Assembly (NCBI GenBank): GCA_964627195.1
Contig: CAZVJU010000003.1
Coordinates: forward strand, 14,854-78,853
Source of the DNA: an uncultured Gammaproteobacteria bacterium
GTDB taxonomy: Bacteria > Patescibacteriota > Microgenomatia > UBA8517
Reading direction: 5' to 3'
Length of the DNA: 64,000 nucleotides
In this document: positions 16,664-27,621 of the stretch, piece after piece
Numbering within the stretch: position 1 is the stretch's first letter
Layout: each line of letters opens with the position of its first letter
Translations under genes and position numbers: made by a program
The notes under the pieces: model-generated
Database searches by the model: none
What the model saw: only the letters and a program-made list of their open reading frames with translations
What the model was told of the DNA's origin: nothing

Positions 16664-17194
16664 ATGAAAATTATAATTAAACTCAAATATTTATTCCTCT
16701 TATTCTTCTTTCTGTTTGCCCTATTGTCAAATTATTATTTAGGTTCAAGAAATATTCAAAACGCTGCAAATGACAATTTCAATGGAGGAATATGTTACGC
16801 ATGTCAATCATGTAAAGACGTATATGAAATATGTCAAAAGAGATTTGGTTTTGATATCTATAATCTTATTTACTCTCTTATTCCTATTTCTTTTGTAATT
16901 GCTCTATTTAATAACATATATTTAAAAAGCAACCTATATAGAACGATTAAACAAAGTATATTATTGGGAATGATATGGTTAATATCTATTGAAATAATAG
17001 TAAGGATATTCCAGATCCCGGTACTTTATACTCATTTCCTTGAGGGTAGACAAAGTTTACATTATCAATTCTTTACATTATTTCCCGAATTTATTGTGAT
17101 TTTTTCTATATTTCAATCAATTATTTCAGGTGTATTTGGTTATTTCGTAGGTAGCATTACAAAACATTTCATATTAAGAAAAGTAGTAAAATAG
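16664..17194 (+). CDS. Hypothetical AT-rich membrane protein immediately downstream of tRNA-Gln
   Basis: 176-aa multi-TM protein with very low GC. It starts 5 nt after the tRNA. Confidence 0.35.
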   Translation: MKIIIKLKYLFLLFFFLFALLSNYYLGSRNIQNAANDNFNGGICYACQSCKDVYEICQKRFGFDIYNLIYSLIPISFVIALFNNIYLKSNLYRTIKQSILLGMIWLISIEIIVRIFQIPVLYTHFLEGRQSLHYQFFTLFPEFIVIFSIFQSIISGVFGYFVGSITKHFILRKVVK

Positions 17195-17228
17195 GTTCTA
17201 ATAGCGTACAAAGTGCGCAGCCAGTAAG
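17195..17228 (+). repeat. About 34-nt 3'-end element, copy D (gttctaatagcgtacaaagtgcgcagccagtaag)
   Basis: Matches the consensus of copies at 20167, 21781 and 23020. It starts immediately after a stop codon. Confidence 0.6.
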
Positions 17229-17253
17229 AATTGGAGAGAGGTCGGGAGGTAGC

Positions 17254-17337
17254 GCTTTCCGCGCCCGCCTCCGCGGAAAGCGGTAATCACCCGGTAATCA
17301 CCCGGTAATCACCCGGTAATCACCCGTCAGGTGATAT
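17254..17337 (+). repeat. GC-rich hairpin (gctttccgcg...cgcggaaagc), then 4 tandem copies of the 11-mer cggtaatcacc, ending in a REP-like palindrome atcacccgtcaggtgatat
   Basis: Read directly from the sequence. The REP unit is the inverted partner of the units at 18061 and 18107. Confidence 0.7.
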
Positions 17338-17340
17338 ACA

Positions 17341-17369
17341 TTGACACAACTCGGAAATAGACATAGGAT
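17341..17369 (+). promoter_or_regulatory. Putative promoter for the transposase gene (TTGACA-N17-TAGGAT)
   Basis: A perfect -35 with a weak -10, ending 10 nt before the ATG. Confidence 0.3.
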
Positions 17370-17378
17370 ATTATTAAT

Positions 17379-18044
17379 ATGTCTGGAAAAAGAAATGTCA
17401 TATTTGCCAAAAACGAAATCTACCACCTTTTTAATCGTTCAAATGCTAACGAATCGATTTTCGTAAAGAAAAAGGAAATCACAAGATCTCTTAACTTGAT
17501 GTCATTTTACAGATTTAATCAAAGTTTGAGATTTTCTTTTTTTGACAGACTTCCTGAAGAACAAAAAGATAAGTATTTGGAAAAGACTTTAGGAAACGTA
17601 CCAAATGTTGACATACTTTCCTACTCCTTAATGCCTAACCACTTTCATTTACTCATAAAGCAAACAAATGAAAAAGGAATAAAAAATTATCTCTCTAATT
17701 TCCAGAACAGCTTTGCGAAATATTTTAATATAAAAAATAAAAGGTTTGGAACTCTTTTTCAGAGACCTTTTAAGGCTAAACATGTAGAATCTGACGAACA
17801 ACTTCTTCACATATCAAGGTACATCCATCTTAATCCTGTTACATCCTATATGATGGAGTTTGAGAATTTGAGAAGTAGTGACTTGACCTCTTTACAATTA
17901 TATTTAGATAAAAAGAAGTCTTGGGTTAATACTGATCTAATTATTAATTTAATAGGTTCGGTATCAAAATACGAAAAATTTGTGAAAGATCATGTTGACT
18001 ATCAAAGAAAATTAAGTAAAATCAAGCACTTGTTATTAGATTAG
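17379..18044 (+). CDS. IS200/IS605-family Y1 HUH transposase, REP-associated (RAYT-like)
   Basis: The HUH motif LMPNHFHLLI is present, along with the C-terminal catalytic-Tyr block LFQRPF...ISRYIHLNPV, which parallels LWQRSY...YI.NP of TnpA IS200. The gene is flanked by inverted REP-like palindromes. Confidence 0.8.
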   Translation: MSGKRNVIFAKNEIYHLFNRSNANESIFVKKKEITRSLNLMSFYRFNQSLRFSFFDRLPEEQKDKYLEKTLGNVPNVDILSYSLMPNHFHLLIKQTNEKGIKNYLSNFQNSFAKYFNIKNKRFGTLFQRPFKAKHVESDEQLLHISRYIHLNPVTSYMMEFENLRSSDLTSLQLYLDKKKSWVNTDLIINLIGSVSKYEKFVKDHVDYQRKLSKIKHLLLD

Positions 18045-18130
18045 TAAGGTGTGTGAACCAATATCACCTGACGGGTGATACGTAGATTAGTAAGGTGTGT
18101 GAACCAATATCACCTGACGGGTGATACGCC
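18039..18130 (+). repeat. 2 x 46-bp tandem direct repeat (gattagtaaggtgtgtgaaccaatatcacctgacgggtgatacg), each containing a REP-like palindrome
   Basis: The two copies differ only at their last 2 nt. The first copy overlaps the transposase stop codon. Confidence 0.8.
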
Positions 18131-18152
18131 TCAAGAGCTAATATATCAAAAT

Positions 18153-18173
18153 ATATCACTCCCGGCGTGGATT
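18153..18173. repeat. REP-like variant tatatcactcccggcgtggat, followed by a tRNA T-loop-like ttcgaacc
   Basis: Same TATCAC...GTG family, with an imperfect right arm. Confidence 0.45.
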
Positions 18174-18195
18174 CGAACCTAATAAGACTTAATTC

Positions 18196-18870
18196 CTAAA
18201 GTTTGTAATTCGAAACTATCTCGTAACTGGCGTAGGGCACGACTTCATCATCAAAAAGGCACATTTTTATTTCCGGCCAGCAATTATCTAAAGCTTTGAT
18301 TTCTTGAATCGAGTACCACTTCACTCCTTCCAGTAACTTCATTGATTCTTTTTCGGTAGGGGTTATTTCAACCTGAAACATGACCTGACCGTCATCAAAA
18401 AGGGATTCACCATCAAGGGTTTTAACGATTTTAGCGTGAAGAGATTTATATTCAAATCTGACTGAGGGGATTTCAATCCCAGTATTCTCTTTAAAGAGTC
18501 TCACTAAGGCAGCTTCCATCGGTTCACCAAACATAGGCCGGCCACTGGGGAAGTTATAGAAATTAATTTTGGCGGTAGGGTGACTTTTTAGTAAATAGTT
18601 GCCGTGACCATCGTGAACAATAAAGCCACAAAAAAAGGTTTTTATTCCCTGCTCACTCAGATCAGATAATTCATAGTTATAAATTTCCTTAATTCCGGTT
18701 GGGGTAATAGCATAGGTATTGTCTTCTTTTTCGATAAATTGATTCTCCAGCAACTGGTTCAGGTGGAAGACTATATTGTTTTCGAAGTTATATCCCCGGG
18801 TTAAAGCCGCATATTTCTGGTTATTTTGTTGGGCAAGCCTTTTAAGTAATACCTTTTGGGTACGGTGCAT
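18196..18870 (-). CDS. wHTH-Nudix-like protein (N-terminal winged-helix-like region plus degenerate Nudix box), paralog 1
   Basis: The block GRPMFGEPMEAALVRLFKENTGIE fits a degenerate Nudix box Gx5Ex7R..E..GI. Much of it aligns by eye with 24670..25344, which has the same 224-aa length. Confidence 0.5.
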   Translation of the reverse strand: MHRTQKVLLKRLAQQNNQKYAALTRGYNFENNIVFHLNQLLENQFIEKEDNTYAITPTGIKEIYNYELSDLSEQGIKTFFCGFIVHDGHGNYLLKSHPTAKINFYNFPSGRPMFGEPMEAALVRLFKENTGIEIPSVRFEYKSLHAKIVKTLDGESLFDDGQVMFQVEITPTEKESMKLLEGVKWYSIQEIKALDNCWPEIKMCLFDDEVVPYASYEIVSNYKL

Positions 18871-19136
18871 AATTTAGTGTAGTTTACTACTCTAGATACG
18901 TTCCTTGGTAGTTGATAAATTACCGCCAAGTATGGAAAACTTAATGGGACAATTAACCGAAGAGGAGCTAGTCAAACACTTATCGCCGGTTGAAAAATGA
19001 CTTTATCGGTCAAGTGATAGGCAAGAGCAGTTGAATATTCTCTGTAATTCAAGTTGGGTTAATACTATCGGCCTTATCATTGAAAAGACGGCCGGACTTG
19101 GCCACCCAACTGATATAATTTTAGGAGGATAAACTT

Positions 19137-19505
19137 ATGTTTAAACAAATGTTTGCTAACTGCATTTTAGTCAAAGATTTTGAAAAATCTTTAGATTTTT
19201 ATCAAAACACATTAGGTTTGGAGCTAAATACCAGAGAGGGTAACTTTGCCAATTTTAAAATTGATAATATCGAGTTGGCGATCATGCAGCAAGACCAAGC
19301 CACCGAAATGCTGCCTAAAGATTTCATGAATAGCGGTGGAAGTGTACTGCTTTGTTTTCAGGTAAGTGACGTGGATAAAACTTGTTCGGACTTGCAAGCC
19401 AAAGGTATAAAGTTTATTTCCGGTCCCAAAGTGACTTCCTGGGGGCAAACCGTAGCCTATTTCCTTGACCCGGACAATAATATTTGGGAAATCTCCAAAA
19501 AATGA
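19137..19505 (+). CDS. VOC/glyoxalase-bleomycin-resistance family protein, paralog 1
   Basis: 122-aa VOC fold pattern. It is preceded by an AGGAGG RBS and is paralogous to 25447..25824. Confidence 0.65.
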   Translation: MFKQMFANCILVKDFEKSLDFYQNTLGLELNTREGNFANFKIDNIELAIMQQDQATEMLPKDFMNSGGSVLLCFQVSDVDKTCSDLQAKGIKFISGPKVTSWGQTVAYFLDPDNNIWEISKK

Positions 19506-20134
19506 TTAAAGCAATTATTTTTGATTACGATGAAACGCTGGTGCAAACTCTTGATGCCCGGATCCAGGCTTATATCCAGTTGGCTAAACAGGAATATCAC
19601 TTTGATTTAAAAGAGGAGGCGATTAGAAAGGCTTTTGGATTACCATACGAGGTGTTTATTAAAACCCTTTTTAGCGAGGTTGATAGCGTCGAGAATATTA
19701 TTGGCAACTATCAAAAAATCACTCCCAATTTTCCCAATAAAGCCTACCCCCAAGCAGTGGAGACCGTCAATAAATTATTGACCAAATATTTGGTGGGCAT
19801 TATAAGCGGCTCAAGGCGAAAAATGATGATAGAGGATTTACATAAGCTCCAATTCCTGGTGGATAAATTCTTTTATATTCAGTCTGGGGAAGACACTGCT
19901 GTTCATAAACCAGATCCAAAAGTGTTTGACCCTTTAATTCAAAAGCTAAAGACTTTGGCTATTAAACCGAAAGAAGCTTTATATGTCGGCGACGACTTGC
20001 GGGACCGTGAAGCCAGCACCAAAGCGGGGATGCAATATATCGCAATTGCCAATCACACCACAGAGGCTAAGGTGTTTGAAAGTCAGAAGATTCCTTATGT
20101 CTTGAGTTTCGATGAACTTAACCGTAAATACTGA
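19502..20134 (+). CDS. HAD-superfamily hydrolase
   Basis: Motif I is IIFDYDETL and motif IV is VGDDLRD. The start at MIKAII overlaps the VOC stop as ATGA. The ORF track places an upstream Met at 19484. Confidence 0.75.
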   Translation: MIKAIIFDYDETLVQTLDARIQAYIQLAKQEYHFDLKEEAIRKAFGLPYEVFIKTLFSEVDSVENIIGNYQKITPNFPNKAYPQAVETVNKLLTKYLVGIISGSRRKMMIEDLHKLQFLVDKFFYIQSGEDTAVHKPDPKVFDPLIQKLKTLAIKPKEALYVGDDLRDREASTKAGMQYIAIANHTTEAKVFESQKIPYVLSFDELNRKY

Positions 20135-20166
20135 AAGCAGGGTATGTCCGGTTACCCATGTAGTAG

Positions 20167-20195
20167 GTTCGAATAGAGTCCACGCAGGCCAGCAA
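20167..20195 (+). repeat. About 34-nt 3'-end element, copy A (degenerate: gttcgaatagagtccacgcaggccagcaa)
   Basis: Shares the GTTCGAA...GTCCAC...CAGCC.AGCAA blocks with copies B, C and D. Confidence 0.5.
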
Positions 20196-20371
20196 ATTCA
20201 AATTTCCAGAAAAGAAAATTTGCTACCGATATTGTATCCTTATGTTTCCATATTAAACTGGTTCGGCCCCCCAATTGACCTTTTCTTTTGAGCTACCATA
20301 ACTTTAAATGAATATTACTTGCAACAAGGATATTTGTTTGATTACGTTACCTATATAAGAATGATGTAATG

Positions 20372-21274
20372 TTAACGTTCCTTACTCAATCCAATGCGAA
20401 TTGAGGCTTGACCTTCTTTCACTACCTTATCAATAACAATAACTCGTTCCATAGGCTCCATTTCTCTTACACTTCTAGCCTCATTTATCTGAAAAACACC
20501 ATTTTCAATCTCTCTTAATGCGGCAATTGTATTTGCAATCATGATGCCATTGTCGCCATCTTCTGCATAATATAAATACGGCCGATGATAGACGAGACCA
20601 TCTTCTCTGCTTCCTCTTCGTAATCCATATAATTTCAAGTTATTACCTTCTTTTCTTAACAACAAAGAATGAATTAGAGTCGGAATTTCATGCAATATCA
20701 TAGTCGCATTTACGTCTGATTCTGCTAGGATATTTTCAATCCAGTTAATTGTAAAAAGCACTCGATCATCTCTATTGAAATCTTGCGTACATTTTTTAAT
20801 ACCTAACCTTTCCGCAATTTCTGGAATTCGTTTACTCGTTTTTGGACTTTCCTCCAGGACCCACGATAAATTAGCGCAAACCGCTAACCCAGTAGTATCA
20901 GTAAAGCCAATGGCTGGGCTTTCTGTTTTATCCCAAGCCTGTGTTTGTTCAGCAAAAACGAATTGAAACTTAGTTTCACTTAATCCGCACGCATCAAATA
21001 CCTCAAACAAACTGATATTTGAAGAGTAAGTTGCTGTTAGTAACTGGCTATTTGTTAGAAATGTATGTTTAGTTAGAGATAATGAATACCTTTCGTCCAT
21101 TATCTTCATTTCTTCGAAATAACAGTCGTCAAAATTTGCGATTAACATCCCCATCGTTGTTCCAAAATCAGCGTAGTGTCCGGGTTTATGATAATTTCTC
21201 ATTTGCTCAAGTGCAGATGAGACATTACCTAATGCTATAGGTTTATTGTGAATATATGATAAGACAGTAGACAT
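20372..21274 (-). CDS. Hypothetical protein (300 aa), unrecognised family
   Basis: Long clean ORF with composition distinct from the neighbouring AT-rich small genes. No motif recognised. Confidence 0.4.
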   Translation of the reverse strand: MSTVLSYIHNKPIALGNVSSALEQMRNYHKPGHYADFGTTMGMLIANFDDCYFEEMKIMDERYSLSLTKHTFLTNSQLLTATYSSNISLFEVFDACGLSETKFQFVFAEQTQAWDKTESPAIGFTDTTGLAVCANLSWVLEESPKTSKRIPEIAERLGIKKCTQDFNRDDRVLFTINWIENILAESDVNATMILHEIPTLIHSLLLRKEGNNLKLYGLRRGSREDGLVYHRPYLYYAEDGDNGIMIANTIAALREIENGVFQINEARSVREMEPMERVIVIDKVVKEGQASIRIGLSKER

Positions 21275-21459
21275 GATGAAGAATTATAAACAAAACAGAC
21301 TAAGTCTGCAAACTGTTTAAATTGAGGAAGAGTTTGATAATTAATTGTCGCCAATAATTCGTTTCAAGGTATGAAGTATTTCAAAAATAGATTTAATATT
21401 CTTCCAGATGTGGTTCCACCTACGGACAAGCTCGCCAGCCAAGATGTATAATTGAATAA

Positions 21460-21780
21460 ATGAAAAAGTCTTTGTTAACTTCACTATTGTTTGCATTTAT
21501 ACTTCTCAATCTCAGTTGGTTTTATGCAAAAAGTGTTACTTGCAGTGGTGGTTCACTTTCAGTAATCAGTTTTGCTAATGGTTGCCAGCCAGGACAAATA
21601 GTATATTATGTCCGCGGTTTTCCTATTGAATTCTTTTGGAGTAACAACACCGGCTTTGTACTTTTTTGGTATTTAATTGACTATTTAATATTTTTTATTT
21701 TTGTTCAATTGTTATTAACAATTATTAGGTTATTTAAATTAAAGCTATCAGATAGTTCTAATGATAAGTTAAGAAAATAA
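21460..21780 (+). CDS. Small hypothetical membrane protein
   Basis: 106 aa with 2 TM segments. It is followed directly by 3'-element copy B. Confidence 0.35.
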   Translation: MKKSLLTSLLFAFILLNLSWFYAKSVTCSGGSLSVISFANGCQPGQIVYYVRGFPIEFFWSNNTGFVLFWYLIDYLIFFIFVQLLLTIIRLFKLKLSDSSNDKLRK

Positions 21781-21814
21781 GTTCGAACAGCGTCCACAGT
21801 TCGCAGCCAGCAAT
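21781..21814 (+). repeat. About 34-nt 3'-end element, copy B (gttcgaacagcgtccacagttcgcagccagcaat)
   Basis: Starts at the nucleotide after the TAA stop. It has an internal inverted repeat cgaac...gttcg. Confidence 0.65.
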
Positions 21815-21898
21815 GAACAAATTATCTCGGTTTGCCAAGCTAATACAAACCCGGAATGGTAAATTTAACACGCTAAAATTACGAAGTATAATTTAATT

Positions 21899-22690
21899 GT
21901 GAGACGTTTTTTACTGATAGTTACATTTCTGATTTTTTACGTCTTGTTTCTGAGATTACCTGTCTTAAAAACAAAGGTGCAAGGAAACAATTTCTACTAT
22001 AGGGATTTATTGGGATTTATTTATACACGACATTCTAGTTGTGGATGGATAGGGCCATGTTCTCATTGGGATGTGCCATTATTAGGTATACACAGTTTCA
22101 CATTTAAAACTTTAAAGTATAGTGGGTTGGATTGTTTAGATGCTTACGCAAAGTCAAACACTGCCCTTTACTATTTAGGCGAAAAACAACATCAGGTCAA
22201 AAGCCCCGCAACTTTTGAGTTAATGAATAATATGTATGCTAAAGATTCAGCAAACGTTTATAAACTTTGCGAACTAGAAGTTTTAAACATCGCCGAGCCG
22301 GATCGGTTTATAACAGTAGGGCCTGTTTGCTCAAAAAGCACCACCAGTGTTTACTGCTTTCAAAAAGAAGTAGAAAATGCAGATATAAATTCTTTCGAAC
22401 ATGTGTGGAGAGGATATTACAAAGATAAAAACAAGATTTATTTTTTAGGTAAACCATTAGGTGAGATCGATCCTGATACTTTCGAGTTATTGTCATGGGG
22501 ATACCTTAAAGATAAAAATGCCATTTTCTTTTTCGACGAGAATGCAAAGGAGTTAACCGAATTAAAGAGCGCGGATAAAACCACTTTTAAAGTATTAACT
22601 GAAATGTATGCAGTTGATGCTTCACACGTTTTCAAAAGCGGGATTGTGTTATCACATACAAATCCTAAAATCTTTAAAGTACCTCAATGA
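21899..22690 (+). CDS. DKNYY-repeat family protein, N-terminal TM anchor
   Basis: Repeated YxxDxNxVY/F blocks: AKDSANVYKL, YKDKNKIYFLG, LKDKNAIFFFD and YAVDASHVFKSG. GTG start. Confidence 0.55.
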   Translation: MRRFLLIVTFLIFYVLFLRLPVLKTKVQGNNFYYRDLLGFIYTRHSSCGWIGPCSHWDVPLLGIHSFTFKTLKYSGLDCLDAYAKSNTALYYLGEKQHQVKSPATFELMNNMYAKDSANVYKLCELEVLNIAEPDRFITVGPVCSKSTTSVYCFQKEVENADINSFEHVWRGYYKDKNKIYFLGKPLGEIDPDTFELLSWGYLKDKNAIFFFDENAKELTELKSADKTTFKVLTEMYAVDASHVFKSGIVLSHTNPKIFKVPQ

Positions 22691-23019
22691 CACTAAACGG
22701 TTCCAGACCGGCCTGCTCAGCAAATAATATTAAGACAAAAACATCCGTACGAATTTGCTATCATTTGCTTATGGGTAGAGTACAGAATTTTTTGAGGCCA
22801 AGTATTAGAAGAATAATATTTGCGTTAATAATATGGCTTGTATTGTGGCTTGTGTCCTATTTTTTTACCGCCAAATGTTTCTTAGCTGACTGTATAAGCG
22901 ATGGTCAAATGACTTCCTGCTGTAGTTCTCTTGAAAATAAAATCGCTGAACTTTTCTACACTATCAAGTTATCTTTTCCAGTAATCGCATACTTATTGTC
23001 TTGTAAATTAACAAAATAG
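22687..23019 (+). CDS. Small hypothetical membrane protein
   Basis: 110 aa. It overlaps the upstream gene by 4 nt and is followed directly by 3'-element copy C. Confidence 0.35.
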   Translation: MTLNGSRPACSANNIKTKTSVRICYHLLMGRVQNFLRPSIRRIIFALIIWLVLWLVSYFFTAKCFLADCISDGQMTSCCSSLENKIAELFYTIKLSFPVIAYLLSCKLTK

Positions 23020-23052
23020 GTTCGAACTCTGTCCACAGTTCGCAGCTCAGAT
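23020..23052 (+). repeat. About 34-nt 3'-end element, copy C (gttcgaactctgtccacagttcgcagctcagat)
   Basis: Starts at the nucleotide after the TAG stop. It has an inverted repeat cgaact...agttcg. Confidence 0.65.
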
Positions 23053-23341
23053 TCCAGCGAGGTGACCGTGGTCTCTTAAAAAGCCCATGTTCTCGCCACA
23101 AGTCGGAAATATTTAAGTCGACATTCGTACTACACCCTCGTTGTCCAGTAAAATGCCATGAAATAGGCATATTTTGATAAGTTATAAGGATAGATCGGTG
23201 ATATTTTAAGCAGAAATTCTCTCTGGAAGCCAAGTATGGCGTTCATGACTTAATTCACCCATAAAATAGGATTCGAACCAAACTATCCTATATTTTATAG
23301 AAAATGACCTGAATTTTTATATTTTTTGCTATAATCCGTCT

Positions 23342-24046
23342 ATGGCTCAGGAAAAAGAAATAAAAATACTTTTAAACATCGATCTTGACGAATTTGTAAA
23401 AAGAATTCAGAAAAAAGGTTATAAATTACAACACATATTAAAACAAACTGATATCTATTTTGATACCAAAAACTGGTTTCTTTATAAAAACATTGCTGCC
23501 CTCAGGTTAAGGCAAATAGACAATAAAGACAGCTCGTTCTCTTTTAAGAAAGTTTTTTATTTACCCAAGAAAAAGGACTATTACATTGAAGAAATTGAAG
23601 TTAAGTTTCCATTTAAGGACTATGCCAAGCTGAAAGAAATTTTCGAAAGAGTAAATATACCATTTAAGGAAAGTGTTTTTAAAAGTGGATCTGAACTCAC
23701 AAAGTACTTATCTGGCTACAAATATTTTGACAAGCAAAAGATGCCAAAAATAAGAAGCGTATATTCCGATGGAGAAGATGAAATAACAATTGATAATGTC
23801 GAAAACGTAGGAATAATAGTTGAGTTGGAATGTCTGGAAAACGATCCTTTCCATATAATTAAAACTATTTTGAAAAACAAAGAATGGAACAGAAGTTTAG
23901 AAGGGACAAGCTATATTTGGTTAAGAAAGGTGAAAGGCTTAACTTCGCATTTGTCGAACTTGGAGAGATTCAAAACCGAACCTGATTGGAATGTTTGGGA
24001 AAACGAAAGAGCTATGTATACCAAAATGCTGAATGGTAAAATGTAA
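23342..24046 (+). CDS. CYTH-domain protein (class IV adenylate cyclase / triphosphate tunnel metalloenzyme family)
   Basis: The N-terminal ExExK signature is present (QEKEIKIL). The length and pattern fit a CYTH fold. Confidence 0.6.
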   Translation: MAQEKEIKILLNIDLDEFVKRIQKKGYKLQHILKQTDIYFDTKNWFLYKNIAALRLRQIDNKDSSFSFKKVFYLPKKKDYYIEEIEVKFPFKDYAKLKEIFERVNIPFKESVFKSGSELTKYLSGYKYFDKQKMPKIRSVYSDGEDEITIDNVENVGIIVELECLENDPFHIIKTILKNKEWNRSLEGTSYIWLRKVKGLTSHLSNLERFKTEPDWNVWENERAMYTKMLNGKM

Positions 24047-24084
24047 AGATAAGATAATTTGAAACTGACTTATTAAATAAATTA

Positions 24085-24483
24085 ATGTCGCTTAATATTA
24101 AAGAGATCGGAAAACTTTTTAAAACAGAGATTGTTTACTTGGCAACTTCTGATTTACAAGGCAATCCGCACGTAAAACCGATTTGGTTTGTGTACTACAA
24201 AGGAAAAATCTGGTTTGAAACAGATATTATTACAAGAGCTTTCAAAAACATCAAGGAAAATAACAAAATTATGCTCTGCTTTGGAGGACGTGAGACTTAT
24301 CTAATCTGGGGAAGCGTTAAATGGTATAAAGAAAAAGATGCACAAGTTCCTTTCAGAAAAATGTTTTGGGAGAAGTATGGTAAAGATATGGACGATAGTT
24401 ATATCACCGAAAAAACCAGAATTTTTGAGGTGATAATTACCAAAGAAATGTCCTGGCACTACGCCGACCAAAACTGGGAATAA
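24085..24483 (+). CDS. Pyridoxamine 5'-phosphate oxidase-like FMN-binding split-barrel protein
   Basis: The block VYLATSDLQGNPHVKPIWFVYYKGKIWFET is typical of the PNPOx-like family. Confidence 0.6.
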   Translation: MSLNIKEIGKLFKTEIVYLATSDLQGNPHVKPIWFVYYKGKIWFETDIITRAFKNIKENNKIMLCFGGRETYLIWGSVKWYKEKDAQVPFRKMFWEKYGKDMDDSYITEKTRIFEVIITKEMSWHYADQNWE

Positions 24484-24523
24484 TTCTCCACTTTTCCCTA
24501 ACCAATTGAAACTAAATAGTTTC

Positions 24524-24642
24524 ATAGAAGTCCACAGCTAAAGCCGTGGTCCTTCGAGCTTCATTCGCCTTAGGCGAATGAATTTTCAATGATTCAATTC
24601 ATCCACGTCCAAAGACGTGAACTTCTTGAATTAGCTTAAAAG
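24524..24642 (+). repeat. MITE-like multi-hairpin element, copy 1 (119 nt)
   Basis: Terminal inverted repeats agaagtccac / gtgaacttct. Internal hairpins are ccacagc..gccgtgg, cattcgcc-tta-ggcgaatg and cacgtc-caaa-gacgtg. Copies also at 27473 and 62196. Confidence 0.75.
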
Positions 24643-24669
24643 TATTAACTTTTGAAGTAGGTTAATAAC

Positions 24670-25344
24670 TCAATCTAGAATATAATCTGATACAAATTCA
24701 TATTGTAAGTAATTGGCTCTATTATTTTGAACTAATAAGATATCTAACTCTGGCCATTTATTAGTTAGGTCTCTGATTTTCTCAAGGTTCATCCATTGAA
24801 TCTGTCTTCCCAGTTCCATTTTCGATCTATGGCTAGGATTTACGATTACTTGATAAATTGCAAAAGCGTCATCAAATAAAACTTCACCGGTTGATGTTTT
24901 TATAGTCTTTAAATGTAAGCTTAAATACTTGAAATTATTTGACTCAACTTCTAGACCAGTGTTTTCATAGAAAATACGAATTAAAGCTTTTTCAGTGTTT
25001 TCCCCAAAATGAGGCTTTCCACTCGGTAAGTTATAGAAATTTGTTTTTCCTCCCGGATGCTCCTTTACCAAAAAGTCATCTCCTGATTTACACACGAAGC
25101 CGATAAAAAATGTTTTGAAACCAGTGTCAGTTAATGAACTTAAATCGTATTTAGCAATTTCTTTAATTCCCACGGAACTAATCTTGTAAATATTGCTTGT
25201 CTTTTCTATAAATCCTTTTTTCAGGAGTTGTTTTAAGTGGAAGACAATATTATCTTCAAAGCTATAACCCCCTGTTAAAGAAGAATACTTTTGGTTGTTA
25301 TTTATTAACAGCCTCTTAAGAAATATCTTTTGGATTTCATGCAT
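24670..25344 (-). CDS. wHTH-Nudix-like protein, paralog 2
   Basis: 224 aa, alignable by eye across most of its length with 18196..18870. Same divergent arrangement with a VOC gene. Confidence 0.5.
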   Translation of the reverse strand: MHEIQKIFLKRLLINNNQKYSSLTGGYSFEDNIVFHLKQLLKKGFIEKTSNIYKISSVGIKEIAKYDLSSLTDTGFKTFFIGFVCKSGDDFLVKEHPGGKTNFYNLPSGKPHFGENTEKALIRIFYENTGLEVESNNFKYLSLHLKTIKTSTGEVLFDDAFAIYQVIVNPSHRSKMELGRQIQWMNLEKIRDLTNKWPELDILLVQNNRANYLQYEFVSDYILD

Positions 25345-25446
25345 AAATAGTAAGCTTAATTATAAGGCAACTTGGTGTAGCCGACTACCCTAGATAAATT
25401 AGTGTCAAAACGGTATTCTAGCTATGTTTGGAAGGAGGTGAGACCC

Positions 25447-25824
25447 ATGTTTAATAAACTATTCGCTGTTTGCCTTTTGGTTAATGATTTTGAAAAATCT
25501 TTTAAGTTTTATAAGGAAACCTTAGGACTAAAAGTAAAATCTCAAGAGGGAAAATTTGCTAATTTTAAATTAGGGGAAACCGAACTTGCTGTTTTCCAGA
25601 AAGATGAAGCAATAGCGATGTTCCCCAAGGAACATATGGGGAGTGGAGGTGGTGTTTCAATTGGTTTTCAAGTAGATAATGTAGAAAGAACTTGTAAAGA
25701 GTTAAAATCAAAAGAGGTAGAAATTTTTGAAGGACCAAAAAAAACTCCCTGGGGTCAGGAAGTGGCATATTTCAAAGATCCTGATGCAAATATCTGGGAG
25801 ATTTCTGAGCCTTTTGAAGAGTAA
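25447..25824 (+). CDS. VOC/glyoxalase family protein, paralog 2
   Basis: Homologous to 19137..19505. The start at MFNKLFAV is preceded by a GGAGGTGA RBS. The ORF track gives a longer ORF from 25402. Confidence 0.65.
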   Translation: MFNKLFAVCLLVNDFEKSFKFYKETLGLKVKSQEGKFANFKLGETELAVFQKDEAIAMFPKEHMGSGGGVSIGFQVDNVERTCKELKSKEVEIFEGPKKTPWGQEVAYFKDPDANIWEISEPFEE

Positions 25825-25832
25825 AGGCAACT

Positions 25833-25988
25833 ATGAAACTGGAGAAAAAAGAAACAATAGAGATAGCACCCATGTCTCCATTTCATTTTGACTCAACTTT
25901 TTTAAACCAGGTCACTTTCCGAGCAGTGATACCAAATGGGAATCAGGAAAAAGATGGCAAACCATGCTTTGGCGAAGAGAGAGGTTAG
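25833..25988 (+). other. 51-codon ORF fragment in a different frame that looks like the displaced N-terminus of the downstream HhH-GPD glycosylase gene
   Basis: Translation MKLEKKETIEIAPMSPFHFDSTFLNQVTF... resembles a glycosylase N-terminus. It overlaps the start of 25964..26785. Confidence 0.35.
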
Positions 25989-26785
25989 GATTGATTTATC
26001 AAAACGCTGGCAGCGACAAAAAAACCAAGATCAAGGTATCAGTTTACTCAAACAAAGTTTTCAATTCTGATTTCCTAGAAAGTTTAAAAAAGGAAATAAT
26101 CTGGAGGTTCAATCTCGACCTTAATTTAGCAGAATTCTACAAAGACGTTGGAAACGACCCACTTCTGTCTCCCATTATTAAAAAGTTCTACGGTCTTCGG
26201 CCAATGCATTACGGCTCATTATATGAGTATTTAATTATTGGCATTGTCCTTCAGAACGCGGTTGTCAGAAGAAGCGTTAGTATGCTTCAATCACTTTTTG
26301 AAAGATATGGTGAATTGTTTGAGTATGATAGCCAGAAACTTTGGTGCTACTGGGAACCAAAAGTTCTGGCTAAAGTAGATGATCAGGAATTAAGAGACTT
26401 GAAGGTGGGATACAGAGCAAAATCACTAATCAGAGTTTCTGAAATGTTTGCAGAGGGAGGAATTGATGAAGTGGGACTACGGAATAAAACCAAAGAGGAA
26501 CAAGAGAAGGTCCTAATTTCTCTTTATGGAGTCGGTCCCGCCACGCTCAGTTATATTATGTTTGATGCTTTTCACCATTGGGACTACTTAAGGACTATTT
26601 CTCCATGGGAGCAGAAGATTTATACACATATCTTTTTCAACAAAGACCATGAAAAAGAACTAGTACCAGTTACTAAAATGCTAAAACGCTTTGAAAGATG
26701 GGGGGGGGATGGAAAGCATTGGCTGTTCATTATGTGTGGGAAGATATTTGGTGGAAAAGAAGGAATCAACACATCGCTTGGTTAG
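25964..26785 (+). CDS. HhH-GPD superfamily DNA glycosylase (AlkA/Ogg-like), probably frameshifted at its 5' end
   Basis: Helix-hairpin-helix LYGVGPATLSYIMF followed by a catalytic Asp region. Confidence 0.65.
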   Translation: MLWRRERLGLIYQNAGSDKKTKIKVSVYSNKVFNSDFLESLKKEIIWRFNLDLNLAEFYKDVGNDPLLSPIIKKFYGLRPMHYGSLYEYLIIGIVLQNAVVRRSVSMLQSLFERYGELFEYDSQKLWCYWEPKVLAKVDDQELRDLKVGYRAKSLIRVSEMFAEGGIDEVGLRNKTKEEQEKVLISLYGVGPATLSYIMFDAFHHWDYLRTISPWEQKIYTHIFFNKDHEKELVPVTKMLKRFERWGGDGKHWLFIMCGKIFGGKEGINTSLG

Positions 26786-26883
26786 AAAAGCTAATTAGGG
26801 TATAAAAATTGGTTCCTAGTGTATCTTAACTATCTTCTCCAAAGTAGTTATAATAGATTCAGAATCGACTAAATTACCTAATT

Positions 26884-27450
26884 ATGAAGAAAGTTGTAAT
26901 AATACATTGCTGGGAGGGATATCCAGATTACTGTTGGTATCCACAGACTAAAAAAGAATTGGAAGACAAGGGTTTTGAAGTGATTGTTCCTCAAATGCCG
27001 GAGACCGCCATGCCTAGGCTGTCACTCTGGCTTCCCAAACTTCAGGAACTGGCTCCCAATCCCAATGAAAATTTGTATCTTGTGGGCCATAGCGCTGGTG
27101 TAATCACTATTATGAGGTATTTAGAAAATCTTAAAGAAAATCAACAAATAGGCGGAGTAGTATTTGTTGCCGGTTTTACTGATGATTTGGGTTATAAAGA
27201 GTTGAGTAATTTTTACGAAAGTCAGCTGAATTTTGAAAAAATAAAATCCGGTGCAAAACACTTTGTTGCGATACATTCTGATGATGATCCTTACGTCTCT
27301 CTCAAATACGGAGATATTTTCAGGGAAAAATTAGGAGCAGAAGTAATTATCAAGCATAATATGAAACACTTTTCAGGAGCGGGAGATAATGAAGAAAGTT
27401 GTACTTCTTTACCCGAAGTAGCACAGGCCATTATCAAATTAAGCAGTTAG
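26884..27450 (+). CDS. YdeN/RBBP9-like serine hydrolase (alpha/beta fold)
   Basis: GHSAG nucleophile elbow and Ser_hydrolase-like layout, 188 aa. Confidence 0.6.
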   Translation: MKKVVIIHCWEGYPDYCWYPQTKKELEDKGFEVIVPQMPETAMPRLSLWLPKLQELAPNPNENLYLVGHSAGVITIMRYLENLKENQQIGGVVFVAGFTDDLGYKELSNFYESQLNFEKIKSGAKHFVAIHSDDDPYVSLKYGDIFREKLGAEVIIKHNMKHFSGAGDNEESCTSLPEVAQAIIKLSS

Positions 27451-27472
27451 TTATAAGCAGGTTTGAAACATA

Positions 27473-27621
27473 ATAGAAGTCCACGGCTTTAAGCCGTGGT
27501 CCTTCGAGCTACATTCGCCACAGGCGTTTGAATTTTCAATGATTCAATTCATCCACGTATAAGCAAAGCTTGGCACCGCTTCGCGTTGTAAAGACGTGGA
27601 CTTCTTGAATTAGCTTAAAAG
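27473..27621 (+). repeat. MITE-like multi-hairpin element, copy 2 (149 nt, with a 31-nt internal insertion)
   Basis: Same termini and hairpins as copy 1. The first hairpin is perfect: ccacggc-tttaa-gccgtgg. There is an extra ataagcaaagcttggcaccgcttcgcgttgt inside the third hairpin. Confidence 0.75.

Follow-up and report, generated by a model that had tools for sequence, protein, structure and literature searches.

NrtR, a regulator of the NAD regulon, joins an N-terminal Nudix domain of the ADP-ribose (ADPR) pyrophosphatase type to a wHTH (winged helix-turn-helix) domain at the C-terminus (Rodionov et al. 2008, PMC2330246). In most members of this family the Nudix signature is degenerate, which goes with lost hydrolysis and gained effector sensing, and ADP-ribose (or arabinose) releases NrtR from DNA (PMC2330246). 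Specifically, NuhA carries an intact signature and is active, and activity is barely detectable for Slr1690, an NrtR homologue whose signature is perturbed (PMC2330246). The NrtR of S. sobrinus is reported to be N-wHTH/C-Nudix (PMC12735969) and is an ADPR/NAD regulator in any case. The present analysis concerns a 64-kb stretch (64,000 nucleotides, hereafter the window) of contig CAZVJU010000003.1, filed as an uncultured Gammaproteobacteria bacterium and placed by GTDB in the Patescibacteriota, in which two 224-amino-acid (aa) proteins combining a winged helix with a Nudix fold each stand divergently from a gene of the VOC family. The two modules share a 22-bp palindrome in the spacer between the divergent genes, as do related loci in several phyla of the candidate phyla radiation (CPR), and probably represent a one-component system in which the wHTH-Nudix protein binds the dyad, senses a ligand through its inactivated Nudix domain and controls the VOC operon. 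Very few regulons of transcription factors have been described in Patescibacteria (CPR), whose genomes are tiny and encode few recognisable regulators.

Two divergent modules and their palindrome

The original prediction described two paralogous pairs of divergent genes, and all of its open reading frame (ORF) coordinates hold in the window. Copy 1 is referred to below as module 1 or W1 and copy 2 as module 2 or W2, and L-numbers denote related loci. The features of both modules are as follows.

18196..18870, minus strand: regulator 1 (type 1), 224 aa, from ORF, Pfam, AlphaFold2 (AF2) model, Foldseek and Nudix-box alignment
18874..18895, no strand: predicted operator 1, a 22-bp palindrome, from a conserved dyad 3 nt from the regulator ATG
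18932..19132, plus strand: small ORF of 66 codons with an in-frame TGA, 50% identical to the intact L011 ORF
19137..19505, plus strand: VOC1, 122 aa, single-domain Glyoxalase_2/Ble-like protein, from Pfam and NCBIfam
19502..20134, plus strand: HAD-IA phosphatase of about 210 aa, second cargo gene of type 1, from Pfam HAD_2 and the FDYDETL motif
24670..25344, minus strand: regulator 2 (type 2), 224-aa paralogue with the architecture of regulator 1, from ORF, Pfam and alignment
25372..25393, no strand: predicted operator 2, a 22-bp palindrome, from a conserved dyad 27 nt from the regulator ATG
25447..25824, plus strand: VOC2, 125 aa, from Pfam and PDB sequence matches
25833..26785, plus strand: Ogg/AlkA-like HhH-GPD gene, the type-2 second cargo, frameshifted, from orthologues and PDB matches

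The two regulators, which had been called paralogous by eye, share 50% identity along their entire length (E=1e-83), and the VOC proteins facing them are 55% identical to each other (E=7e-54). The ATG at 25447 stands as the start of VOC2, since it fits all orthologues (MF[NK]K[LM][FY]A) better than the GTG at 25402 proposed by the ORF lister, and a GGAGGT Shine-Dalgarno sequence lies upstream of it.

Scans of genomes and metagenomes revealed 16 further loci, of which about 12 are independent. Wherever a locus includes upstream sequence, the regulator and a VOC homologue stand head-to-head, and the phyla with this pairing comprise Shapirobacteria, Dojkabacteria, Saccharibacteria and Doudnabacteria. 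Several CPR phyla thus share both the pairing first noticed in the window and a conserved palindrome between the divergent genes. The loci fall into three types according to their cargo.

Type 1, regulator facing VOC + HAD: W1, L001, L002/8/9, L011, L012/13
Type 2, regulator facing VOC + Ogg-like HhH-GPD gene: W2, L007, L014/18, L015, L016
Type 3, regulator facing VOC, alone or then an overlapping unassigned protein: L003-L005

A search of the divergent spacers for a shared operator motif, which the original prediction had recommended, returned one conserved palindrome. When the spacers are aligned in regulator orientation, the single block common to them is the 22-bp dyad CTAGnGTAG-N4-CTACnCTAA, located 0-27 bp upstream of the regulator ATG in all loci, and over 13 non-redundant loci its information content amounts to 1.51 bits per position, compared with 0.36 in the adjacent spacer. 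The core GTAG-N4-CTAC occurs exactly twice in the window (18879-18890 and 25377-25388; 0.41 expected) and exactly once per related locus, each time at the same position. In most loci this core ends 3-10 nt before the regulator ATG; the distance is 31-32 nt in W2 and L014, where a TATAAT lies between palindrome and ATG. Operator 1, TTAGTGTAGTTTACTACTCTAG (CTAGAGTAGTAAACTACACTAA in regulator orientation), is separated by 3 nt from the ATG of regulator 1 and lies 36 nt upstream of the small-ORF ATG, and operator 2, TTGGTGTAGCCGACTACCCTAG (CTAGGGTAGTCGGCTACACCAA in regulator orientation), is separated by 27 nt from the ATG of regulator 2 and lies 53 nt upstream of the VOC2 ATG. In general, the distance from the palindrome to the first cargo gene downstream of it is about 35-55 bp. 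The half-sites of the two operators are nearly identical and the two paralogous regulators stand in one genome, which may allow cross-talk. Across the loci both half-sites are conserved and the central N4 varies (TAAA, TCGG, CCGA, CCAA, AGAG, CTTA), a pattern that would be expected of a binding site for a dimeric protein and not of an RNA stem.

The 266-bp spacer of copy 1 had been regarded as intergenic. It does contain the operator candidate, but it is not empty, since the small conserved ORF lies inside it. An Rfam scan of 17000-27500 gave nothing credible, and this long spacer therefore holds no known riboswitch or small RNA.

Putative regulator and cargo proteins

Regulator 1 divides into a winged helix (residues ~1-65), a low-confidence linker (~66-77) and a Nudix-like domain (~78-219), with a mean pLDDT of 84 for the full-length AF2 model. 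The proposed resemblance of the N-terminus to a winged helix is borne out by the predicted structure: residues 1-72 modelled alone reach a pLDDT of 88 with the topology H-beta-H-H-beta-beta, and nearly all of the top 50 Foldseek matches in the PDB are winged-helix DNA-binding proteins (TMq 0.6-0.81). These include MarR-family repressors (among them DNA-bound AbfR), the AspA-DNA complex and PadR-like proteins, IclR, IdeR and PhiH1-repressor-like folds. The lack of any DNA-binding fold, which would have counted against a regulator, is thus not what was found. At the sequence level, the winged-helix matches are weak (DUF7347 at E=5e-4, HTH_45, Sso10a, and winged-helix models of NCBIfam and PADLOC), and Pfam gave no MarR match for the regulator at E<=1.

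The C-terminal domain has the alpha/beta/alpha fold of the Nudix hydrolase superfamily. Pfam NUDIX (PF00293) scores 24.5 bits in copy 1 and 23.1 bits in copy 2, above the gathering score of 21.1; the best Foldseek match is GDP-mannose mannosyl hydrolase (GDPMH; E=4e-9, probability 1.00), followed by YmfB, NUDX1, MutT and Dcp2, and the best sequence and profile matches are the MutT/Nudix proteins 3ID9, 4V14 and Ndx1. The Nudix-box strings quoted in the original prediction are correct. Compared with the canonical GX5EX7REUXEEXGU, the family box reads G110-x5-E116-x7-R124-[L/I/M]-F-x-E128-N129-x-G131-[I/L/V], with G110-x5-E116-x7-R124-L-F-K-E128-N129-T-G131-I in regulator 1 and GKPHFGENTEKALIRIFYENTGL in regulator 2. 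Of the three Glu of REUXEE, the middle one is kept, the first is replaced by L/I/M and the third by an Asn (N129) that is invariant in 15/15 aligned sequences; the complete catalytic signature is absent. Profile alignment to 3ID9, which places the family's RLFxEN opposite REMREE, likewise shows a degenerate box, as had been claimed, and not the complete box that would have contradicted the claim. A homology search returned 13 close relatives, each of about 224 aa, and the two that carry an organism name come from Parcubacteria and Shapirobacteria. The database labels of these family proteins (MutT, YjhB, NUDIX hydrolase, hypothetical) are probably misleading.

The family belongs to a wider set of proteins. 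An exhaustive profile search yielded 505 representatives at E<=1e-3, and most of the best 150 of these are ~215-240 aa long and align over both domains. Among 136 full-length representatives, REUXEE retains all three Glu in 23, reads RExxE-x in 37 and retains none of the Glu in 24. One well-sampled sister branch, annotated as 'NUDIX hydrolase', 'MutT' and 'YjhB', combines PF24038 with PF00293, and its sole named organism is a Saccharibacteria metagenome-assembled genome. This sister subfamily (e.g. P0192) aligns with regulator 1 over both domains at 25% identity (E=8e-11) and in 3/3 independent loci is divergent from a 380-420-aa PRK-family kinase (PF00485). Its spacer contains no GTAG-N4-CTAC; instead, a dyad ATTTGA-N-TCAAAT adjoins the regulator ATG as part of the conserved block GTATAGAAAGTwTAATTTGAsTCAAAT (L019 3408-3500, L020 3414-3500, L022 3400-3500). 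The sister subfamily is thus alike in its two-domain architecture, its divergent single partner and the palindrome adjoining the ATG, but differs in the partner, the palindrome and the Nudix box, which is mostly RExxEK with one Glu lost. As such, it presents a second candidate set of regulator, operator and target, and architecture and putative operator position that are shared while operator sequence and target differ are the pattern of diverged paralogous transcription factors.

The cargo gene common to all types encodes a VOC protein. VOC1 and VOC2 match Glyoxalase_2/Glyoxalase/Ble-like_N in Pfam (E=4e-20 to 5e-23) and contain the paired beta-alpha-beta-beta-beta modules of the VOC superfamily (PF00903/PF12681). 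Their designation as enzymes, in turn, is doubtful, as both canonical metal-binding His are absent: relative to GloA, H5 is replaced by Ala in 13/13 VOCs and H74 by L/S/V/C, with E122 kept, and the complete ligand set of the glyoxalase I/Fos metalloenzymes (His/Glu/His/Glu or His/His/Glu) is accordingly absent. All NCBIfam enzyme equivalogs fall far under their cut-offs. Strand beta-1 carries an invariant Cys. Among solved structures, VOC2 is closest to the 'glyoxalase/bleomycin resistance' proteins 5UMP/5W27/5UJP/5UMQ (E about 2e-9), which are probably TnmS1-3-type enediyne-sequestering proteins, a type reportedly described by Chang et al. in 2018. VOC2 also matches the mitomycin-binding protein (E=1e-4). 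Sequestration by TnmS is described in PMC9854587.

The HAD gene announced after VOC1 is present (HAD_2, E=3e-29), but its start is more likely the ATG at 19502 than the TTG at 19484. With this start, it overlaps the VOC1 stop by 4 nt (ATGA, 19502-19505), an overlap that is identical in the Shapirobacteria locus L008, and a HAD gene after the VOC gene is conserved in L001, L002, L008, L011 and L012. The protein has the intact DxDxT motif (FDYDETL) and HAD_2 match of a HAD-IA phosphatase. NCBIfam gave sub-threshold matches only, the best being PpaX and phosphoglycolate phosphatase; the latter activity, which would fit bleomycin-type damage, scored 51 bits against a cut-off of 225 and was set aside as speculative only.

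An extra cargo gene had been presented as a trait of copy 1. The HAD gene bears this out for copy 1, but copy 2 also has a conserved downstream gene, of the HhH-GPD type, that had been overlooked. Its product is 72% identical to that of L014/L018, matches Ogg-type glycosylases in the PDB (4EJY at E=5.6e-13, CacOgg and hOGG1) and scores 24.5 bits with Pfam HhH-GPD, under the 26.2 cut-off. In the window (25964-26785) as in its orthologues (L014 1140-2010; L007), the protein has GVGPAT for GVGxK and ISPWEQK for the P-x-D-V of Ogg, so that the aligned catalytic Lys and Asp are absent. A nearby conserved Glu might substitute; the family may use another carboxylate or be a non-catalytic lesion binder. 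The gene is a continuous ORF in L014, L007 and L015; in the window, a 1-nt frameshift in ACTTTTTTAAACC, at a T6A3 run (~25898-25906), splits it into a 51-aa ORF (25833..25988) and a 273-aa ORF (25964..26785). In formal terms, the T_TTT_TTA at this site qualifies as a slippery heptamer for -1 frameshifting, and slippage by -1 would give back the colinear protein; more simply, the split is read as a deletion in the homopolymer, an error of assembly or a pseudogene.

Only 4 nt separate the end of the small ORF of module 1 from the VOC1 ATG. An intact counterpart of 71 aa in L011 (1146-1358, minus strand) shares 50% identity with it (E about 6e-18), although the spacer DNAs do not align. ORFs of this kind (66-71 aa) are confined to the W1/L011 sub-clade, where they are probably the first gene of the cargo operon. 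The in-frame TGA at 18998-19000, an ordinary stop codon in the window, corresponds to Arg in L011 and is also present in L010, a contig from a JGI metagenome with 100% protein identity to the copy-1 locus; the ORF may be a pseudogene in the window. It has no Pfam match, and its assignment as a LuxR-type HTH or MazG-like protein was ruled out on that account.

A third type of cargo is seen in L004 (3063-3488, minus strand) and L005 (3124-3678, minus strand), where a conserved 141-184-aa protein overlaps the VOC stop. This protein carries the motif W-x-ILDGLHR-x-CKQV and has no Pfam match; an assignment to ParB/Srx was dropped for lack of Pfam support.

Predicted regulation, alternatives and module history

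Comparative genomics and the predicted structure are best explained by a model, which we consider probable, in which the winged helix of the regulator binds the 22-bp palindrome, presumably as a dimer. The dyad would overlap the regulator's own promoter or 5' end as well as the cargo promoter. Because it lies both near the regulator start and at ~35-55 bp from the first cargo gene, one bound dimer would control both, resulting in autoregulation and in repression of the cargo operon (small ORF, VOC and HAD in module 1; VOC and HhH-GPD in module 2). The Nudix fold, lacking two of the three catalytic Glu, would sense a small molecule, most plausibly a ligand of the nucleotide type, whose binding would alter DNA affinity, as ADP-ribose does for NrtR, and induce VOC + HAD or VOC + HhH-GPD. 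The module would then most likely constitute an inducible detoxification or damage-response unit. The cargo suggests this nature of the stress but does not show it: the constant VOC has no metal-binding His, the solved structures nearest to it are probably binding proteins for DNA-damaging drugs, and the second cargo is a HAD phosphatase, an Ogg-like HhH-GPD protein or an unassigned protein.

A bolder combination of these elements is rather unlikely to hold as a whole. It proposes a large, unrecognised superfamily specific to Patescibacteria (as judged from the named members seen), in which a mostly inactivated MutT-like Nudix domain serves as a nucleotide sensor and each subfamily has its own palindromic operator beside its start codon and a single divergent target. 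In the present subfamily, the sensor would detect a damaged or modified nucleotide or a genotoxin and induce sequestration plus repair, through a VOC of the drug-binding type together with a phosphatase or an Ogg-like protein for DNA lesions. If true, ultra-small symbiotic bacteria would thereby possess a compact defence that genotoxins induce.

Several points weigh against the regulatory model. All Pfam wHTH matches remain under their gathering scores, and comparison of the N-terminal profile with PDB sequences gave chance matches only, so the DNA-binding call rests on fold comparison, for which the Foldseek E-values of this small domain lie at 7.5e-3 to 5e-2. The palindrome ends 0-5 nt from the regulator ATG in most loci, which leaves no room for a Shine-Dalgarno sequence, and it could partly be an element of a leaderless promoter. 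A scan for sigma-70-like promoters found none in either divergent spacer, with a count not above that of shuffles, and the promoter positions in the model are therefore inferred. Operator 1, moreover, lies 241 bp from VOC1, and the small ORF in between has a stop codon. Finally, G110, E116, R124 and E128 are kept in the Nudix box, and GDPMH, the best fold match, is an active enzyme with an atypical Nudix signature, so that the Nudix domain may have residual or unusual catalysis.

The last point leads to an alternative that we consider unlikely, namely a bifunctional enzyme-regulator whose Nudix domain is still a non-canonical hydrolase tethered or regulated by the wHTH, comparable to NuhA or to enzyme-repressors of the NadR/BirA type. 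The four kept residues and the fold match to GDPMH favour it, as do the full REUXEE in 23/136 superfamily representatives and the activity of intact-signature NuhA (PMC2330246). In this family, however, L/I/M always takes the place of the Glu that follows the Arg, an invariant Asn takes that of the last Glu, and Slr1690 with its perturbed signature is barely active (PMC2330246).

According to a second alternative, the Nudix, VOC and HAD proteins are pathway neighbours that work one after another on a single metabolite, not regulator and target, and the palindrome is no more than a shared element of a bidirectional promoter or leaderless start. A Nudix pyrophosphatase and a HAD phosphatase are a common enzymatic pairing, the palindrome adjoins the ATG and the spacers show no canonical promoter. 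This explanation is nonetheless improbable, given the wHTH fold, the degenerate Nudix box and an orientation that is always divergent while the second cargo varies (HAD, HhH-GPD or unassigned). The sister subfamily further speaks against it with a different palindrome at the same position next to an unrelated partner, and a promoter need not be a dyad. The one-component regulator thus remains the preferred explanation, and it provides a unit that can be tested: a regulator family, a 22-bp predicted operator, targets, and a sister subfamily with another operator and target.

The two modules of the window are best read as two old, co-diverging lineages in one genome without recent local duplication, because each has closer orthologues elsewhere, the cargo differs, and regulator and VOC trees concur on the type-1 split. 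To the type-1 VOCs of Shapirobacteria and metagenomes, VOC1 shows 72-75% identity, compared with 55% to VOC2, which in turn is 68-72% identical to the VOCs of L005, L007 and L014-L016. Similarly, regulator 2 shares 64% identity with the regulator of L014, which also has VOC + HhH-GPD cargo, compared with 50% with regulator 1, and the type-1 clade is recovered alike in the neighbour-joining tree of the regulators and in that of the VOCs. The modules have no shared DNA-level repeat apart from the short operator. The idea of a duplicated module under diversification does not survive these comparisons: a recent local duplication now diversifying in a repeat-rich region, for which the 6-kb distance between the copies and the small repeats and IS200-like element nearby might speak, is highly improbable when each copy is closer to orthologues in other phyla and the second cargo is HAD in one and HhH-GPD in the other.

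The regulator family seems restricted to Patescibacteria/CPR. The locus L006 (CAYHSW010000104.1, 1.8 kb), labelled 'uncultured Gammaproteobacteria', matches the groundwater contig L015 in operator and spacer sequence and with identical tblastn identities; it is probably a mis-binned contig carrying an otherwise CPR-only gene. In the Shapirobacteria locus L008 (6100-10675), genes for NAD synthase, a 618-aa CTP_transf_like (NMNAT-like) protein and a further NUDIX protein come after the regulator, an arrangement reminiscent of NrtR regulons. A link to NAD was considered and rejected, as NadE and NMNAT-like neighbours occur in this locus only and are not conserved in the others.

The surroundings were described as repeat-rich, and small repeats are indeed present, but they are REP/IS200-type and intergenic elements unrelated to the modules. 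An IS200/Y1-transposase-like gene (17379..18044; Pfam Y1_Tnp, E=3.9e-8) lies directly 3' of regulator 1 and is bracketed by inverted repeats of 33 nt that have hairpin cores (17319-17351 vs 18047-18079 and 18093-18125). In the same stretch, 46 nt are perfectly duplicated in tandem (18037-18128) and an 11-nt unit is repeated four times in tandem (17281-17324). The element at 17281-18128 looks like a REP-associated tyrosine transposase (RAYT) with REP elements. An intergenic element of ~100 nt occurs at 24541-24642 and 27491-27621 with 93-97% identity and a terminator-like hairpin (24560-24582), one copy lying directly 3' of regulator 2, and a 43-nt intergenic repeat has three copies (17179-17221, 21765-21807, 23004-23046) of 74-100% identity that end in ...GTTCGCAGC. 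The genes between the modules (20372-21274 on the minus strand; 23342-24483 on the plus strand) encode a 300-aa protein without Pfam or NCBIfam match, a CYTH-domain protein (23342..24046) and a PNPOx-like protein (24085..24483), and in the other loci no link of these genes to the modules was found.

Comparison with known systems

A defence-system reading was rejected for this locus: PADLOC gave weak generic winged-helix or Nudix-like matches (E at least 1.6e-5) and none for the cargo.

The cargo resembles drug-sequestering VOC proteins, such as the mitomycin-binding MRD (1KMZ/1KLL) and bleomycin-binding proteins, which are likewise single VOC domains of ~120-140 aa. Like them, the module VOCs lack the metal-binding His of glyoxalase I/Fos, and they share the Ble-like_N match in Pfam. 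Identity to these proteins is low (E about 1e-9 to 1e-4), however, and the invariant beta-1 Cys has no assignable counterpart in them. If the VOC binds a genotoxin or electrophile, the modules would show how episymbionts cope with toxic metabolites of their hosts or neighbours.

MarR repressors provide the best N-terminal fold matches (HpaR 7EL2, AbfR-DNA 5HLG, MexR 1LNW; TMq up to 0.81), including the recognition helix and the wing. The logic of the locus also resembles theirs, as MarR proteins are typically dimeric, bind palindromes of 16-22 bp in divergent spacers, regulate themselves and target detoxification or resistance genes. In contrast, MarR proteins are single domains of ~140 aa whose pocket and dimer interface are formed by helices flanking the wHTH; those helices are absent from the regulators described here, in which only ~65 residues precede a separate Nudix domain.

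NrtR, in turn, shares with these regulators a wHTH, a Nudix fold with a similarly degenerate GX5EX7REUXEEXGU signature, a proposed role in effector sensing, a palindromic operator and a gene position beside the targets, and its size of ~225-240 aa is similar. The domain order of NrtR (Nudix N-terminal, wHTH C-terminal) is reversed here, with the wHTH at 1-65 and the Nudix domain at 78-219. The NrtR Nudix domain is ADPR-pyrophosphatase-like, whereas the one described here is nearest to MutT, GDPMH and NUDX1, and the NrtR structures 2FB1 and 2FML fall outside its top 50 Foldseek matches. The winged helix, in contrast to that of NrtR, matches DUF7347, HTH_45 and MarR-like folds, and the NrtR regulon of NAD or sugar genes is replaced by VOC + HAD, VOC + HhH-GPD or VOC with an unassigned gene. 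As such, the original label of an NrtR-like regulator is apt as a functional analogy but not as a statement of membership, given the reversed order, the MutT/GDPMH-type Nudix domain and a regulon other than NAD. Taken together, the regulators are most simply explained as a wHTH-Nudix fusion independent of NrtR, which points to a second recruitment of the Nudix fold for sensing, in the opposite domain order.

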